Shown: positions 14,185 through 63,900 of the stretch, in pieces
How positions within the stretch are numbered: the stretch's first letter is position 1
Layout of the letters: each line of letters starts with the position of its first letter
Origin: a virus
Lineage: Duplodnaviria > Heunggongvirae > Uroviricota > Caudoviricetes
Strand: one strand, 5' to 3'
IMG/VR virus record: IMGVR_UViG_3300045988_141797
DNA: 64,000 nucleotides
Notes under the pieces: model-generated
The model's database searches: none
Told to the model about the DNA's origin: nothing
The model's input: the letters and a program-made list of their open reading frames with translations, nothing else
Made by a program: the position numbers and the translations under genes

Positions 14185-14802
14185 CTAAACAAAAACAGAT
14201 GAGATATTGCTGCGGTTAATAGATGTGTTGCCACTGCATTGCAGAGTGACCGTGTTGTGGGTGAAATAGCCTTCCGATGTGCGCGGGGCGTCAAGCTGAT
14301 AGCTGACGCTTTTGATCACAACGTTCGTTAACATCACGTTCCTGCCGATATTTATCGTTACGGCCTCCGGGACTCGACCAAAAGGCGTAATGTCGTTTAG
14401 TTCTGGCGATGCCATTTTCAGCAACGTCGTGATGGCGTCATTCACCTCAATTTTTGCGCTGGATGTAGCTAAAAAATCCAGGACAAGGGTAAATTCCGGC
14501 GGTTGTTGCCCTTCCCACACGAGGGTGGAGTTGAACCGGCTTTTACTCGTGTACCCTGATGATGTCTGCACGATGCCTGCAAGAGATGATGCAGCCTCGC
14601 TAATAGCGCCTAACATGCTGCCCATCGCTTTATCTTCAAATGGCGACTGCCACAGAGACGATAGTTCGGCAGAGGAACCTTCGCCGATATATCCGACTAC
14701 CATATCCTCACTTGACTTGATGTAGGCTTTCATTAGCGGGCTTATGCCGTCTGCCATGATCGCGCCGCAAATCACTGCTATTTCTCCCAAACAGGCCACC
14801 AT
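14185..14802 (-). CDS. tail protein, hypothetical
   Basis: 205-aa ORF between sheath-like and tube-like genes. Confidence 0.3.
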   Translation of the reverse strand: MVACLGEIAVICGAIMADGISPLMKAYIKSSEDMVVGYIGEGSSAELSSLWQSPFEDKAMGSMLGAISEAASSLAGIVQTSSGYTSKSRFNSTLVWEGQQPPEFTLVLDFLATSSAKIEVNDAITTLLKMASPELNDITPFGRVPEAVTINIGRNVMLTNVVIKSVSYQLDAPRTSEGYFTHNTVTLQCSGNTSINRSNISSVFV

Positions 14803-37699: not shown

Positions 37700-37800
37700 T
37701 CCAATCTCAATGGCGGTAGCACTGACTGGGTTGGAACTACCGGCGCAAAAGGGAACCGGCCTGCCTTTCGGCAGCCCAGCCAGCACTACCATTGATCTCT
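37700..37800 (-). ncRNA. candidate structured regulatory RNA / leader
   Basis: minus-strand 16-bp helix between 37775-37790 and 37715-37730 with three G-U wobbles (would be C-A mismatches on the plus strand), extended by CAATGG/CCATTG, enclosing hairpin CTGCC-GAAA-GGCAG. Confidence 0.4.
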
Positions 37801-37837
37801 GAGCTAAACGCTACGCATGGCTGTGCGATGGCATGAC

Positions 37838-37862
37838 ACAAAAAAAGACGCTTTCGGCGTCT
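37838..37862 (-). terminator. intrinsic terminator (minus strand)
   Basis: hairpin GACGC-CGAAA-GCGTC followed by T7 run on the minus strand. Confidence 0.55.
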
Positions 37863-37957
37863 GTGTCGCCTTTTGCATTATCCGGGGTTCCAATCCCGGC
37901 ACCCGTTTTTCTAAGGTGCCGTAGAAATATACCCCACGATAATGCCAGGGCGCAACT

Positions 37958-44272: not shown

Positions 44273-45268
44273 ATGAGTGCAATAATCACACCTCATTTCG
44301 TAAACGGAGCTGGTGTGGCTGTCTTTCCGGTAGACAAGCCCACCAGCAACTACATTGGCGCAGGTCGCCGTTTCATTATCTCTCCACTTCCGCGCGAACA
44401 GGCTGAAAACACGCCAGATGGCGTAGTGGATCTGAACTATTCGCTGGTTGCCAACCAGTCTCTGAAAGCATTTTTTCAAAGCGAGCGCGTATTTAACGCA
44501 TTAGGCGGTGAAGATTCGCTTGTTCATTGGGTAAGTTCCAATATCCACGATTGCCAGGCGCACGATAAGCGCGATTGCAGCCACCAGCTAACCACTCATT
44601 TCTATAACGGCTCTGCCGTTCGCCTGTGCTGGAAGCATGATGCGGAATACATGATGAAGGGGTACGGCAAGCTGGATGACCAGTTATCCCTGAATCGTGC
44701 CAACTGGGTTATGAACTGGGCTGCGAGCGAGTTAAAACTACCGCCAGAACGCGATCTGAGCATGGTTGAACTCACTTTTTGGGCCATTCGCCGGAATCTG
44801 AAAGACGAGCTGCCAGATGAAGCCGGTCGCATTGCATTTTGTCAGCCAAAACAGGAAATCCCTACCGGCACACTGAAAGAATCGGATATCACCTGGGAGC
44901 ACAGCACCCGTGAGCTGGTGGACATAACCGCAGAGCAGATCGTCAACCTGTCTGTAGATGAGGATTCCGGCCTGCTGTATATGCGCCGACCAAAAGCGGT
45001 TCTCGGTAAAAGCCCGGCTTATCTCCGGTTTGTGATTTCTCGTCCGTGCATCGGATGCGGAGGCAAAGTTAATCACCCGTTCATGTACCGCGCCCGCTCG
45101 TTAAACGAACACGATCGCTGGGCCGTTCCTCTTTGCGATGAATGCGCCAGAAGCGCAGAAAACGATGTCCGGGCATGGGAAAAAGCACATGGCATACGCC
45201 TTTACGTAGCCGCCAACCAGCTTTTCGACTTCGCCATCGAGCGCGGAGTGATCACGTTCAATAACTGA
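44273..45268 (+). CDS. hypothetical protein with C-terminal Cys cluster
   Basis: 331 aa; CIGCGG...CDEC near C-terminus. Confidence 0.35.
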   Translation: MSAIITPHFVNGAGVAVFPVDKPTSNYIGAGRRFIISPLPREQAENTPDGVVDLNYSLVANQSLKAFFQSERVFNALGGEDSLVHWVSSNIHDCQAHDKRDCSHQLTTHFYNGSAVRLCWKHDAEYMMKGYGKLDDQLSLNRANWVMNWAASELKLPPERDLSMVELTFWAIRRNLKDELPDEAGRIAFCQPKQEIPTGTLKESDITWEHSTRELVDITAEQIVNLSVDEDSGLLYMRRPKAVLGKSPAYLRFVISRPCIGCGGKVNHPFMYRARSLNEHDRWAVPLCDECARSAENDVRAWEKAHGIRLYVAANQLFDFAIERGVITFNN

Positions 45269-60976: not shown

Positions 60977-61359
60977 TACCAGCGGGATAAACGAACAACA
61001 TGCTTAACTTTTGCCTCCCACTTCCCTTTATGTTTGTTGATCACCGCCTGCGCCATCTTCAGACTGGCTTCAAAATCGGCTTTTCGACCACTATTGCCCA
61101 CCAGCAACGCTCCGTCTATTTCAGGTAAGCATAAGTAATCCTGCTCGACGGTAAGCGGCATTGATGATGTAACCTGGCAGGCTTTCCATCTGAAGCGTAT
61201 GCGCACACTCCTGACTGACATCACGACATAACCTGATATTGTGCTCTTGTGTCCGGCGTCTGTGCGTGTAGCCTTGCATGATGTTATCTTGCAGGTGATG
61301 ATATCCCAACCAATGTGCATCGCATCCTCAATGCGTAATTTAGTAGCCTCGTACATCAA
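60976..61359 (-). CDS. hypothetical protein
   Basis: 127-aa ORF. Confidence 0.3.
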   Translation of the reverse strand: MMYEATKLRIEDAMHIGWDIITCKITSCKATRTDAGHKSTISGYVVMSVRSVRIRFRWKACQVTSSMPLTVEQDYLCLPEIDGALLVGNSGRKADFEASLKMAQAVINKHKGKWEAKVKHVVRLSRW

Positions 61360-61931
61360 AAAACCTCCCAGTCAGTAGCGATAATATCAACACCAGTTGC
61401 AAACCAGTCTGTCTGTGCCTGTAAATCCCCATTCATCATTACCAGGCGAGGCATAACCATCACATCACAACCTTCAACAATATCGAATGCCTCTTCCGGC
61501 AGGAATTCGACGAGCTTTTCTTTGCTGCCAACACTGCCACGGAGCATCGATATATAGCTCCCTTTAGGCCATGATGTTCGCCGGGCATCAAGCCCCTTCA
61601 TCATCCAGTAAAAGGCCGATGAGAACGGGATGTTCTTTTTGGCGATGAGCACGTTATTCGCTTCTGTGTACTTCAGGAACTTAACTAACCTTACCATCGA
61701 CTCGGATAACGCAATGTACGGCTCATGATTGATTGCTGACACACTTACGCCGTGCAGTCCAACACTTACCACTGTCATATCACCGTTCTGTGCGGTTTCG
61801 ATGTTGACGCCTTTACGAACTAACGCTGCATAAAGCTCCTCGCGCTTTTGCGTCCAGCATTCTCGTCGCCCTATAAAGTCACTCAAAACGAGATCATCTT
61901 CTAAATACGCGTTATCGTTCGCCGTTAACAT
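61356..61931 (-). CDS. second DUF2829 (Tad2-like) domain protein
   Basis: C-terminal half FSSAFYWMMKGLDARRTSWPKG...DLQAQTDWFATGVDIIATDWEVF parallels the DUF2829 block of the 53066 ORF. Confidence 0.4.
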   Translation of the reverse strand: MLTANDNAYLEDDLVLSDFIGRRECWTQKREELYAALVRKGVNIETAQNGDMTVVSVGLHGVSVSAINHEPYIALSESMVRLVKFLKYTEANNVLIAKKNIPFSSAFYWMMKGLDARRTSWPKGSYISMLRGSVGSKEKLVEFLPEEAFDIVEGCDVMVMPRLVMMNGDLQAQTDWFATGVDIIATDWEVF

Positions 61932-62383
61932 AACGTCTCCTTTTTTACACGCGCGACTATCCCCCGGCTGAACCGGTAGTGACGTCGTAACTTCGTATTA
62001 ATTAAGGGTTACAGCCTGAGCGGCTATATGATGAATTGAAAGGAGTTGTGGCGGTGGTGCCTCCACCTGCCAGGTTAGCCACGCCCGGCGACGACACTTA
62101 TCAGAACGTAGTGAATGAAAATGGCTTCGTCACGAGCGCATAGCCGCAATTACCACAACGGAAACGGCGCTCACGCTAATTAAACGCCTTTTCCTGTTGT
62201 ACGCCGTGCTCTTCCGGCTGTCACACCGAATCGCCAGGATGGTGAATCCGCAGTCCGACGCTATGAACGGGGCTTGCACATTCCGGCTACCTGGTGTGCC
62301 CATGCAGTGTTAGTAAAAGGTACCTAACAGCTACACCAGACCGCTAACGACGCATGTGCCATACGCCGTGTTACAACCAAATG

Positions 62384-62459
62384 TGGTGGCCCCTACCGGA
62401 CTTGAACCGGTGACCGTGCGATTATGAGTCGCCCGCTCTAACCACTGAGCTAAAGGGCC
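62384..62459 (-). tRNA. tRNA-Ile2-like (anticodon CAU)
   Basis: cloverleaf with CCA encoded; anticodon arm GGCGA-CTCATAA-TCGCA; close to E. coli ileX from memory; could formally be elongator Met. Confidence 0.8.
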
Positions 62460-62469
62460 AGATTACTGT

Positions 62470-62598
62470 TAATTACGCTTACGCTTTTTGCCAGAACCGC
62501 GTAAGGCTTTTGCCGCTTGCTCTACCCCGTATGCAACCACCAGCAGAAACAATAATGTCCACTCCGGGTTTTTATCGGCAAACGCCCAAAAATCCATC
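62470..62598 (-). CDS. candidate 42-aa membrane peptide
   Basis: manual translation MDFWAFADKNPEWTLLFLLVVAYGVEQAAKALRGSGKKRKRN with AAGGTGG RBS; below ORF-track cutoff. Confidence 0.25.
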
Positions 62599-62888
62599 AC
62601 TTGCAGCCACCTTTTAAGACAAAACGCCATTGCTGTTAGGTTGCGGTGCCGGGTGCCTCCCGGTGACGTTAACCAGTTAACAATTAACGCCGGATCACTT
62701 ATGGATTCTCGTTACGCCAGTAAAAAGACCACCTTTACTGTTTTAACTGTTCCGCGTGCGCTTAGCCGCATTCACCGCAATGGTAAGAGCATTTGGCTGA
62801 CTGGGCGGCGATGACGCCTGTACGCATTTGGTGATCCGGTTCTGCTTCCGGCATTCGCTTAATTAGCCAAATACTCTTAACGTTGCGC

Positions 62889-62975
62889 TGGCGGAGAGTA
62901 ATGGAATCGAACCATCATCGCTTGCGCAATGGGACGGTTTTCAAGACCGCTTGAGCACCATGCTCCCTACTCTCC
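62889..62975 (-). tRNA. tRNA-Ser (anticodon UGA), type II
   Basis: anticodon arm GCGGT-CTTGAAA-ACCGT, long variable arm, T-loop TTCGATT, discriminator G, CCA encoded; short D-loop. Confidence 0.65.
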
Positions 62976-63081
62976 AGTGATTGTGATGGTCGGTGCTGAA
63001 CTCCGACACAGGGTTGTAGCAAGCCCCGCAAAGCGCGCACTACTGTAGTTGCGGCACATCAGCCTGTGCATTCATCACAAC

Positions 63082-63155
63082 GGTAAGGGTACTTCGTAGG
63101 GATTCGAACCCTCTGCCAAGCTCGGCGATCTCCGACGTCGCAAAATACCCTTACC
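63082..63155 (-). ncRNA. non-canonical tRNA-like element
   Basis: perfect 10-bp terminal helix GGTAAGGGTA/TACCCTTACC extendable to about 15 bp, canonical T-arm AGGG-TTCGAAT-CCCT, no standard D or anticodon arm, no encoded CCA. Confidence 0.35.
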
Positions 63156-63163
63156 TGTTGTGT

Positions 63164-63239
63164 TGGTGCCGGTTAACGGACTCGAACCGCTGACATCCTG
63201 CTTACAAGGCAGGCGCTCTACCAACTGAGCTAAACCGGC
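63164..63239 (-). tRNA. tRNA-Thr (anticodon UGU)
   Basis: GCCGGTT acceptor, anticodon arm CCTGC-CTTGTAA-GCAGG, T-loop TTCGAGT, CCA encoded. Confidence 0.85.
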
Positions 63240-63243
63240 AATT

Positions 63244-63330
63244 TGGTGGGGAGTGATGGAGTCGAACCATCCGAGTCGCAATGACAGTAGATTTACAGTC
63301 TACCCCGCTACCCCTACGGACTAACTCCCC
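63244..63330 (-). tRNA. tRNA-Tyr (anticodon GUA), type II
   Basis: anticodon arm GTAGA-CTGTAAA-TCTAC, long variable arm, T-loop TTCGACT, CCA encoded. Confidence 0.75.
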
Positions 63331-63335
63331 TAAAT

Positions 63336-63412
63336 TGGCGATGGTGGGTGGATTCGAACCACCGACCGACAGCTTAGAAGGCTGCTGCTCTATCCTACTG
63401 AGCTACACCATC
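63336..63412 (-). tRNA. tRNA-Arg (anticodon UCU)
   Basis: GATGGTG acceptor, anticodon arm GCAGC-CTTCTAA-GCTGT, T-loop TTCGAAT, CCA encoded. Confidence 0.8.
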
Positions 63413-63875
63413 ACTTGCCGGGTACGTCTCCGGCGAGGGCTTCCACCTCCGTATGCTTTTCGGCGCACCGCGCCCTGGCTGCAATTCGGTAACAGGGGAT
63501 GCATAACCCTGGCTTCCAGCGTGATTAGCGCCTTCAGCATGACGGGATATACCCGTTACAAGACATTATCCCAGAAAGCCATTAACCAATGGCTGTTACG
63601 CGGGAGGGACGTAACAGGTAAGGGCGCTGACCAGAAAGACCTGACCCTTCTCATTCATCTGGTTAATCACACCAGCGCCCTTGCCTGTTATGCCTCCCCG
63701 TTCCCTAATACACAGACGGGGACACTCTGCGGTCGATTTTTTGACGGGGGACGACTCATACCCCGTGGCGTCAGGCTTCTTAGGCCGCTACCATCATCAG
63801 ATCATCGTTTGCATTTACTTTAATGGTCGGGTTCTAAACCGCCGCAAAGTCGCTAACCATGACGAAAACACTGAA

Positions 63876-63900
63876 AAAACACCCACCCGAAGGTGGGCAA
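63876..63900 (-). terminator. intrinsic terminator (minus strand)
   Basis: hairpin GCCCACC-TTCG-GGTGGG followed by T-run on minus strand. Confidence 0.5.

Follow-up and report, generated by a model that had tools for sequence, protein, structure and literature searches.

Five tRNA genes lie tightly packed on the minus strand between positions 62,384 and 63,412 of a 64,000-nt stretch of viral DNA (Caudoviricetes; IMG/VR record IMGVR_UViG_3300045988_141797; the whole stretch is referred to here as the window), and between the genes for tRNA-Thr and tRNA-Ser is an odd tRNA-like element in which a T-arm is set on a long terminal helix. The helix belongs to a family of hairpins, here called clamp modules, of which the window holds four (A, B, C and a short form). 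Comparison of sequences indicates that phages P1 and lambda share this strongly conserved, unannotated hairpin module, which is absent from Rfam 15.

The window stretch is 100% identical to the Escherichia coli plasmid NZ_LR890273.1, on which the Prokaryotic Genome Annotation Pipeline (PGAP) has placed tRNA-Arg, -Tyr, -Thr and -Ser, a 43-codon hypothetical coding sequence, tRNA-Ile and then a Tad2 family protein, so that the array and the small open reading frame (ORF) were already on record and are known biology, not new. The closest phage matches to the region are D6, P7 and P1. The P1 record lists, in order, a promoter/operator, a dicF-like region, trnA (Asn), trnT (Thr), plp and upl (on the opposite strand), tciA-tciB-tciC, trnI and ban, and the tRNAs of D6 are Asn, Thr and Ser. 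The same synteny of the ban operon is found in the window, with a terminator/dicF-like region, the tRNAs and trnI, and with pacA, pacB and lpa-like ORFs downstream; the Pban promoter and operator fall past the window end. The region is the tRNA-bearing leader of a C1-repressed ban-type operon in a D6/P1-like phage-plasmid. The tRNA region is one of eight hypervariable regions of P1 (PMC9603915), and the relatives fill its fixed tRNA slots differently (either Asn or Arg; Tyr and Ser each present in some and absent from others). The genes of the array are as follows.

63336-63412, minus strand: tRNA-Arg (UCU); ARAGORN, Rfam tRNA at 72.1 bits, PGAP tRNA-Arg; CCA encoded
63244-63330, minus strand: tRNA-Tyr (GUA) with a long variable arm; ARAGORN, Rfam tRNA at 43.8 bits, PGAP tRNA-Tyr; CCA encoded
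63164-63239, minus strand: tRNA-Thr (UGU), orthologue of P1 trnT; ARAGORN, Rfam at 74.9 bits, alignment with P1, P7 and D6; CCA encoded
62889-62975, minus strand: tRNA-Ser (UGA) with an atypical short D-arm, a long variable arm and G73; ARAGORN, PGAP tRNA-Ser; CCA encoded
62384-62459, minus strand: tRNA of the Ile2 type (CAU), orthologue of P1 trnI; ARAGORN (label 'Met'), PGAP tRNA-Ile; CCA encoded

All five tRNAs claimed on the minus strand in the initial annotation were returned by ARAGORN at the same coordinates, and the sequence bears the encoded CCA on each. The Rfam tRNA gathering score was reached by four of the five; the best Rfam match of the tRNA-Ser gene was to tRNA-Sec, at 44.6 bits under a cut-off of 47, and the D6 record states for its own Ser gene that tRNAscan-SE left the amino acid uncalled. 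The proposal of an Ile2-like CAU species agrees with the PGAP label and with near-identity to P1-type trnI across 55 nt, and a note in the P1 record gives trnI 89% identity to E. coli ileX. The Ile2-type assignment is supported by these sequence matches, and lysidine modification by TilS is presumed.

Codon use in the window's 52 long ORFs (AGA 6.2, AGG 6.2, AUA 10.3, ACA 16.7 and UCA 12.1 per 1000) is about 2-5 times the E. coli values, which bears out the argument that the Arg(UCU) and Ile(CAU) species decode codons rare in enterobacteria; Tyr codons are not enriched in the same ORFs. The five array genes are taken as working tRNA genes, and four of them serve codons over-used by the phage relative to E. 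coli. The tRNA-Arg(UCU) gene occupies the slot of tRNA-Asn(GUU) in P1, and both versions of this slot circulate in P1-like plasmids. Compared with a P1-type Asn gene (L007 802-877), the acceptor stem, discriminator and CCA are held in common (GAUGGUG ... CACCAUC-G-CCA), while the D-loop, anticodon arm and T-stem differ, and this pattern suggests that tRNA identity may have been exchanged through recombination inside the gene.

A tRNA-like element on a conserved stem

The four clamp modules of the window, together with the domain that separates modules B and C, lie at these positions.

63598-63704, minus strand: clamp-hairpin module A, upstream of the tRNA trio (inverted repeat; fold of -52.7 kcal/mol, z = -5.25)
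63076-63162, minus strand: clamp-hairpin module B, with an outer helix CACAAC/GUUGUG, a bulged A and the 15-bp clamp GGUAAGGGUAUUUUG/CGAAGUACCCUUACC
62981-63081, minus strand: inter-module spacer domain with closing pair GUUGUGAUGAA ... CAUCACAA (sequence; motif positions)
62771-62890, minus strand: clamp-hairpin module C, GUUAAGAGUAUUUGGCU / AGCCAAAUGCUCUUACC (inverted repeat; fold of -47 kcal/mol, z = -4.67)
62153-62200, minus strand: clamp module in short form, ACAACA-GGAAAAGGCG ... CGCCGUUUCC-GUUGUGG, loop of ~14 nt (motif scan and sequence)

Module B is the odd element itself and starts 1 nt past the CCA of tRNA-Thr. The perfect 10-bp terminal helix first described for it was recovered in an inverted repeat search (GGTAAGGGTA, 63155-63146, with TACCCTTACC, 63091-63082), though as part of a longer stem, in which pairing extends to 15 bp including two G.U pairs and continues past the bulged A into the outer 6-bp CACAAC/GUUGUG helix. 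The predicted fold has a free energy of -40.3 kcal/mol (z = -6.1 against shuffles). Within the stem lie a D-arm-like 4-bp hairpin, GCGA-CGUCGGAGA-UCGC, with a 9-nt GG-containing loop, then an 11-nt linker and the T-arm GAGGG-UUCGAAU-CCCUA. In this T-arm, earlier described as canonical, the T-loop is an exact GGTTCGAATCC, and the T-stem has four pairs plus a G.A mismatch. The sequence also agrees with the earlier statement that there is no CCA and no anticodon arm, and the 15-bp and 6-bp stem is present instead of a 7-bp acceptor.

ARAGORN found no tRNA in 63076-63162 even at 70% thresholds, with introns allowed or not, Rfam gave no tRNA-clan match to the same interval at E <= 10, and PGAP annotated no feature there on the identical plasmid. 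Module B is neither a tRNA nor a recognisable pseudo-tRNA, and the suggestion of a pseudo-tRNA, as it was worded, finds no support in ARAGORN or Rfam. The accompanying idea of a stable RNA or a processing element remains live, with processing preferred, but with the stem and not tRNA mimicry as the likely functional unit. The sequence of module B is identical in P1 and D6, and ~93 near-identical copies are present in viral contigs. At the same site P7 has kept the terminal helix with a compensatory change of U-A to C-G, around an unrelated interior without a T-arm, and a pattern scan of viral contigs found that many P1-like genomes hold B-type and P7-type versions in tandem. The T-arm of module B is one of many interchangeable interiors carried on a conserved family stem.

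Across the family, the modules follow the 5' consensus (C)ACAAC-A-GGUAAGRGYAUU and the 3' consensus RUGCUCUUWCC-GUUGYGRUGAAUGC around interiors that are wholly different. The basal stem of ~20 bp consists of the 6-bp CACAAC/GUUGUG helix, the bulged A and a 13-17-bp clamp (GGUAAGRGYAUU/RUGCUCUUWCC), and encloses an interior of 14-104 nt. Every tested copy folds as predicted, each with 6 bp, a bulge and 13-17 bp (z from -3.5 to -7.3), and downstream of each clamp are a conserved single strand and then a small hairpin, GCRCA-GGCUGA-UGYGC. Up to six modules were counted per P1-like leader by repeat analysis and a hairpin finder. The interiors are exchangeable, with 63 distinct sequences (37-104 nt) among 81 lambdoid copies that have a recognisable 5' clamp. 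They are also dispensable, since the 43-nt short form, which sits between trnI and the Tad2-like gene in the window and recurs as the same variant in at least 11 P1-like loci, has a loop of only ~14 nt. Because the interiors vary or nearly vanish, the stem is the constant feature.

The individual modules of the window add to this picture. The stem of module A (AACAGGCAAGGGCGCUG / CAGCGCCCUUACCUGUU) has outer GGGGAGG/CCUCCC pairs, and its homologues occur in P1-like loci and in lambdoid and virulent phages, where they come after the tag-like RNA element described in the next section. Module C starts 2 nt past the CCA of tRNA-Ser and has an interior homologous to the lambda sequence directly downstream of the lambda module. 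The spacer domain holds a conserved small hairpin (GCACA-GGCUGA-UGUGC, 63054-63069), and its closing pair is also predicted in lambda, with covariation (GUUGUGGUG/CACCACAAC against GUUGUGAUGA/UCAUCACAAC). GUUGUG has an alternative partner in the CACAAC ahead of the next module, and this pairing, which likewise covaries, closes the spacer into a separate domain.

Substitutions in the clamp were used to distinguish a helix in RNA from one in DNA. Among 89 distinct clamp variants, scored at 14 positions each, there were 1021 Watson-Crick pairs, 119 G.U, 14 A.C and 92 other mismatches, the last mostly a single conserved U.U. The excess of G.U over A.C (119:14) points to a helix that forms at the RNA level on the transcribed strand; neither a cruciform in the DNA nor transcription of the opposite strand would produce such an excess. 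Over the 19-pair stem, 92.4% of cells are paired compared with ~40% when the partner columns are slid by one to three, 12 of the 19 pairs have changed on both sides, and the observed values were reached in 0 of 500 column shuffles, but the percent-paired and shuffle figures overstate independence because the sample was selected for at least 12 of 14 paired positions and for an exact 23-mer, and many of its rows are related. By a crude measure, the modules are mostly co-oriented with the neighbouring long ORFs (90 loci against 19 in the P1 set, 77 against 37 in the lambdoid set).

Module B is not alone in its resemblance to tRNA. Of 112 distinct interiors, 13 contain the T-loop motif GTTCRANTC, against a chance expectation of 0.17, and these come from at least five unrelated sequence families. 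The T-arm abuts the 3' clamp strand, as it does in tRNA, in module B and in L220, L246 and L311, and lies at the 5' side of the interior in L229, L268 and L271. Although they have no sequence relationship, L246 and module B are built to the same plan: a long stem, a 4-bp hairpin whose 9-nt loop contains GG, and a T-arm that abuts the 3' strand. The B-type interior itself recurs in the lambdoid clamp L220, whose stem differs by compensatory changes. Copies of the B type vary too little for a test of selection on the T or D hairpins.

The distribution of the module extends well beyond P1. Of 5426 complete E. coli genomes, 1562 (~29%) have a match to a 41-nt probe drawn from the 3' clamp strand, the spacer and the small hairpin; about half of the sites are chromosomal, and no annotated feature lies under any match. 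The chromosomal copies belong to lambdoid prophages, where the gene for the Q antiterminator lies to one side and that for the holin to the other. Lambda itself carries a clamp module at ~44787-44862, directly past the tR' terminator of 6S RNA, an interval at which the lambda records have nothing annotated. The clamp and downstream hairpin, with unrelated interiors, were also found in Serratia, Klebsiella, Pantoea, Rahnella, Rouxiella, Pseudocitrobacter, Pluralibacter and Raoultella. A degenerate scan (14 specified bases, one genome per species) returned mostly chance matches in unrelated phyla, and the module was present in 11 of the 12 enterobacterial loci, which were the ones examined (all except L148). 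The exact 23-mer of the 3' clamp is present in more than 120 viral contigs, and in Akira-like and Ackermannviridae phages the clamp comes after the conserved tag-like RNA element. Literature searches on sequence words, the ban operon and RNase III in lambda late transcripts returned no description of the module, and modules A-C had no match among the 4227 families of Rfam 15 except meaningless miRNA-precursor matches and a sub-threshold STnc100 leader.

Several other identities were considered and set aside. Known ribozymes, AgvB and AsxR gave no Rfam matches on modules A-C, and a hammerhead core (CUGAUG ... GAAA) in the downstream hairpin is not conserved between copies. Mini-ORFs after the hairpins (MNAQAD...) have no Shine-Dalgarno sequence and no conserved length, and interior lengths have no 3-nt periodicity of the kind expected for coding through them. 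A miniature inverted-repeat transposable element was rejected because transposed copies show the opposite of conserved ends around differing interiors. Module B as a transfer-messenger RNA (tmRNA) was rejected on the presence of only the T-arm and on ARAGORN, which reported no tmRNA at default or 90% thresholds. Integron attC sites require RYYYAAC / GTTRRRY, from which the flanks ACACAAC / GTTGTGA or GTTGTGG deviate centrally, and no integrase is present in the annotated neighbourhoods of the modules. The scan for intrinsic terminators and promoters found none at the modules, its only terminator hit being an upstream site at 63880-63899.

Neighbouring features of the leader

Just upstream of module A is a conserved RNA element of ~170 nt (63705-63873, minus strand; also L196 3240-3412 and L320-L324). 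It contains UAAAU-GCA-AAC-GAU-GAU...GCN-GCN-UAA, a ten-codon frame that ends in Ala-Ala-stop and reads ANDDLMMVAA in the window and in P1; elsewhere the frame reads ANDDVVLMAA, ANDDVILMAA, ANDDLMLMAA, ANDDLMLAAA, ANEEMYLAVA or ANDEQFLAVA, and its Ala codons show synonymous wobble changes. It resembles the tmRNA tag ANDENYALAA. The frame has no in-frame start codon or Shine-Dalgarno sequence and is preceded by an in-frame stop eight codons upstream; the stop codon is enclosed by a hairpin, and downstream of it are two more, which covary. In all, 99 phage records contain the element without annotating it; they come from no fewer than six unrelated groups, among them P1-like, lambdoid, Drexlerviridae, Akiravirus, Ackermannviridae, Schitoviridae and Chaseviridae phages. 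The element is often near tRNAs, usually with a clamp module next. Rfam tmRNA_permuted scored it at 24 bits against a cut-off of 47, and ARAGORN was negative at default and 90% thresholds and at 80% picked out the tag together with many false positives. Since a tRNA-like domain cannot be detected in it, the element is not a canonical tmRNA. The tag peptides had no match in the literature.

Degenerate tRNA-Thr-like genes adjoin the clamp or the tag-like element in a Raoultella prophage (L186 3660-3760) and in phage ECBP1 (L323 674-749). The Raoultella copy matches the tRNA model at positions 8-63 only and has a non-pairing 5' acceptor strand, and the ECBP1 copy is labelled 'tRNA-Pseudo' in its record.

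Within and below the array, two further features occupy the minus strand.

62642-62779, minus strand: partial STnc100-like leader (Rfam STnc100, RF02076, at 40.8 bits where the cut-off is 47; match confined to model positions 31-147)
62469-62597 including the stop, minus strand: 42-codon ORF with one hydrophobic stretch, a diverged TciC homologue (ORF list; PGAP hypothetical coding sequence)

The small ORF had been noticed in the initial annotation, correctly as to its existence and one position off in its coordinates (62470-62598). It has 39% identity to P1 TciC across 33 aa (E = 3e-8), sits at the same position as P1 tciC, and has no Pfam family; PGAP begins it at a GTG one codon upstream. 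The segment at 62642-62779 is a related leader, below the threshold for membership of STnc100, and starts with the post-clamp motif UGCGGUGAAUGC. In P1 and D6 this leader precedes tciA, a terB-like gene, and the window has lost tciA and tciB but retains this leader. In Stx-type prophages, according to a 2026 preprint, STnc100 is linked to PasD small RNAs that lie close to terB.

The first protein-coding gene past the downstream end of the array (61356-61931, minus strand) has a domain of the Tad2-like, anti-Thoeris kind (Pfam PF11195 at 40.4 bits, cut-off 25) and is named 'Thoeris anti-defense Tad2 family protein' by PGAP, so that the tRNA leader of the plasmid leads into an anti-defence gene where P1 carries ban. 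At the upstream end, an intrinsic-terminator-like site (63880-63899, minus strand; GCCCACCUUCGGGUGGGUG followed by U6) is the sole one in the scanned region and matches the end of the P1 'dicF-like region'. A scan found no sigma-70-like promoter between this site and the tRNAs, and transcription from the ban promoter must pass it to reach them. Farther away, a C4 antisense RNA (76.7 bits) adjoins an isrK-like RNA (62.5 bits) at 37709-37919 on the minus strand; this is the immunity region, of the immI type, of P1-like phages. A single 11-mer that looks like a T-loop, GGTTCAACTCC, away from the called tRNAs (14527-14537, minus strand), is probably coding sequence and probably there by chance.

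Possible roles: processing stem, small RNA or recombination site

The position and size of the stem suggest a tentative function. In the P1-like set 122 of 326 modules begin no more than 12 nt from a tRNA 3' end, and 22 of 125 lambdoid modules come after the T-run of a terminator. A stem of ~20 bp is the known size requirement of E. coli RNase III, as in its sites in T7 early RNA and in the stems that flank the rRNAs, and in its predicted fold every folded copy has this length, about two helical turns. Daniels et al. 1988, which is reference 49 of PMC7547250, is said, from its title, to concern RNase III sites in the lambda late leader, a lead that may bear on the lambda module. Because a ~20-bp stem recurs in long leaders, just past tRNA 3' ends or the late terminator, the clamp hairpins may be RNase III-type processing sites at tRNA 3' ends, with the cleavage and the enzyme proposed from shape; this is given somewhat less than an even chance. 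Each stem would fold within the long transcript into a double-stranded segment of about two helical turns, which host RNase III would cut. The cuts would split the polycistronic RNA into the leader with the tag-like RNA, the tRNA block, tRNA-Ser and the downstream mRNA. Short trailers would be left, as modules B and C start 1-2 nt past a CCA, and exonucleases could trim these to the mature tRNA 3' ends.

Several points weigh against this proposal. The role of RNase III is drawn from the shape of the stem and the title of a paper, and the pairing statistics come from a sample that overstates independence, as noted above. The clamp is conserved across genera in sequence as well as in pairing, which plain RNase III sites do not normally require, and such conservation hints at a sequence-specific partner or at conservation driven by recombination. 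The model does not account for the conserved single-stranded GUGGUGAAUGC and the GCGCA-GGCUGA-UGCGC hairpin downstream, the enrichment of T-loops (13 of 112 against 0.17) suggests that the interiors are not always mere filler, and a global fold of the 407-nt lambda leader favours an alternative pairing.

It is possible, though unlikely, that module B is itself the product, a small stable mimic of the tRNA elbow in which a D-loop and T-loop are presented on a long stem. Such a mimic could serve as a decoy or substrate for TrmA/TruB, RNase P, the CCA-adding enzyme or tRNA-targeting defence nucleases, and in a broader form of the idea the variable interiors could be a small-RNA library on a common scaffold. 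The T-loop enrichment across at least five families, the common architecture of the unrelated L246 and module B, the retention of the B-type interior in P1-type and lambdoid clamps despite compensatory clamp changes (L220), and the presence in the operon of an anti-defence gene with a Tad2-like domain all speak for it. The C4 RNA of P1, matched in the window, is a known non-tRNA substrate of RNase P. Most interiors, however, have no T-arm and the short form has nearly no interior, module B has neither the CCA nor the single-stranded 5' leader that aminoacylation and RNase P require, and the B-type copies are too invariant to reveal selection on the T or D hairpins.

It is unlikely that the modules act at the DNA level, with the clamps and their GTTGTGRTGAATGC flanks as recombination linkers or recombinase sites that shuffle cassettes and tRNA genes and with the hairpin as a by-product. 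Hypervariable interiors between near-identical flanks would be expected of such sites, the deletion in the window relative to P1, in which most of plp is lost, breaks in a repeated GTTGTGATGAATGC motif, and the tRNA content changes among relatives at fixed slots in a region of P1 known to be hypervariable (PMC9603915); the outline, with inverted ends and a variable centre over 43-121 nt, is also like that of integron attC. But the 119:14 ratio of G.U to A.C is a signature of RNA, unexpected for a cruciform or for simple homology, and the covariation preserves pairing and not sequence. The attC R''/R' consensus is unmatched, there is no associated integrase, and the cassettes are too short for genes. 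Recombination at conserved segments happens anyway and is compatible with a role in RNA.

A wider synthesis, distinctly unlikely as it stands, would see the clamps as a phage 'RNA cassette holder', from which interchangeable small RNAs are released when the stem is processed out of early or late leaders, some of them, module B included, elbow mimics without an anticodon that are directed against host tRNA handling or tRNA-targeting defence. Alongside the tRNAs, the tag-like RNA and Tad2, this would make the ban and late leaders RNA-based counter-defence islands common to P1, lambda and unrelated virulent phages.

Very unlikely is the possibility that module B is the functionless relic of a decayed tRNA whose D and T arms have survived by chance. 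The exact T-loop, the D-like hairpin and the place inside a tRNA array are what such a relic would show, and a 7-bp inner stem followed by C-CCU is loosely like an acceptor, discriminator and CCA. The terminal helix, however, is the family clamp, common to copies without any tRNA features, and is therefore not a decayed acceptor stem; ARAGORN at 70% thresholds and Rfam at E <= 10 are negative, and P1, D6 and this plasmid have the element without a single difference, while a lambdoid clamp has also retained it.

Antitermination of the nut type is extremely unlikely. It would take the 3' clamp strand UGCUCUUUCC as boxA and the GCGCA-GGCUGA-UGCGC hairpin 12 nt downstream as the boxB analogue, and the layout of boxA, spacer and hairpin is indeed similar, in long leaders with tRNAs and terminators; the strand has an eight-base match to the rrn boxA (UGCUCUUU) and to lambda nutR (GCUCUUAC). 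The boxA-like strand is nevertheless held in a 13-17-bp helix, where NusB/NusE require single-stranded RNA, module B has ACCCUUACC in its place, lambdoid late operons use Q already, several copies per operon are unexpected, and the resemblance was noticed post hoc.

It is barely conceivable that the element is conserved because its opposite strand codes for the C-terminal end of the lipoprotein Plp in P1, whose record places plp across it, since most of plp is deleted in the window with the element intact, no plus-strand ORF of at least 30 aa crosses the element, and Plp has a TTG start, no Pfam family and, in RDSNP and TDSNR, two T-arms read antisense. In P1 (NC_005856) plp (69472-69849, 'putative lipoprotein') and upl (69850-70041; together L002 1713-2282) lie opposite tRNA-Thr and the clamp modules. 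Pfam has no family for either of them, and relatives show deletion or rearrangement of this region. From these features both are probably annotation artefacts.

The clamp is best described, with the processing function held at slightly below even confidence, as a putative stem for the processing of phage transcripts, in the present case modular and widespread, with an interior that is hypervariable and on occasion tRNA-like. It is a widespread unannotated feature of P1 and lambda, the two most-studied temperate coliphages, placed where phage tRNAs end and where late transcripts pass a terminator. Should the modules be RNase III sites, this would explain how the tRNA-plus-mRNA operons of these phages are taken apart and would give annotators a simple new class of feature, and plp and upl, both doubtful as genes of P1, could be retired. 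The interiors, hypervariable and in part tRNA-elbow-like, offer a natural experiment on the small RNAs that are worth carrying for phages.

Likeness to known systems

The window resembles the ban-operon cluster of P1, P7 and D6 in locus, order and strand logic, in the dicF-like/terminator region upstream and in the orthologous Thr and Ile2 tRNAs, with Ser shared by D6. It differs in having Arg(UCU) instead of Asn and an added Tyr, in the deletion of tciA, tciB and most of plp and upl, and in a Tad2-like gene at the position of ban in P1, and genes of the D6 type continue beyond the array.

Among structured RNAs, the stable RNAs of the T4 tRNA cluster (species 1 and 2) and the C4 RNA of P1 and P7 are, like module B, non-tRNA RNAs with or near phage tRNAs. 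These RNAs have tRNA-like features and are processed by tRNA enzymes; module B has no sequence relation to them and is without a CCA and a free 5' leader. The theta ribozymes, which are similar to that of hepatitis delta virus (HDV-like), are located immediately 3' of phage tRNAs and are presumed to define tRNA ends. The clamp modules share that position as structured RNAs, but match no ribozyme family at E <= 10 and have no evident catalytic core, and the cutter proposed for them is a host enzyme. The tRNA-like domain of tmRNA and minihelices have, as does module B, a T-arm on a terminal stem, an analogue of the D-loop and no anticodon arm, while module B differs in its closed stem of 15-21 bp and in having no CCA and no G3.U70.

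Integron attC sites and the clamps are alike in length and in being imperfect palindromes whose ends are conserved, whose centre varies and in which one base is extrahelical. The clamps are set apart by core sites that do not fit, the lack of an integrase and of gene cassettes, and a strand bias that points to RNA.

From RNase III hairpins, as in the lambda late leader, T7 early RNA and the 16S and 23S rRNA stems, the clamps differ in a sequence that is conserved across genera and phage families, in the conserved single strand and small hairpin that come next, and in a hypervariable, sometimes tRNA-like interior; for the clamps, cleavage is proposed from the stem. Both have an interrupted stem of ~20 bp with a variable apex in a long polycistronic leader, both adjoin stable RNAs, and one clamp copy lies in the very lambda leader for which RNase III sites were reported.

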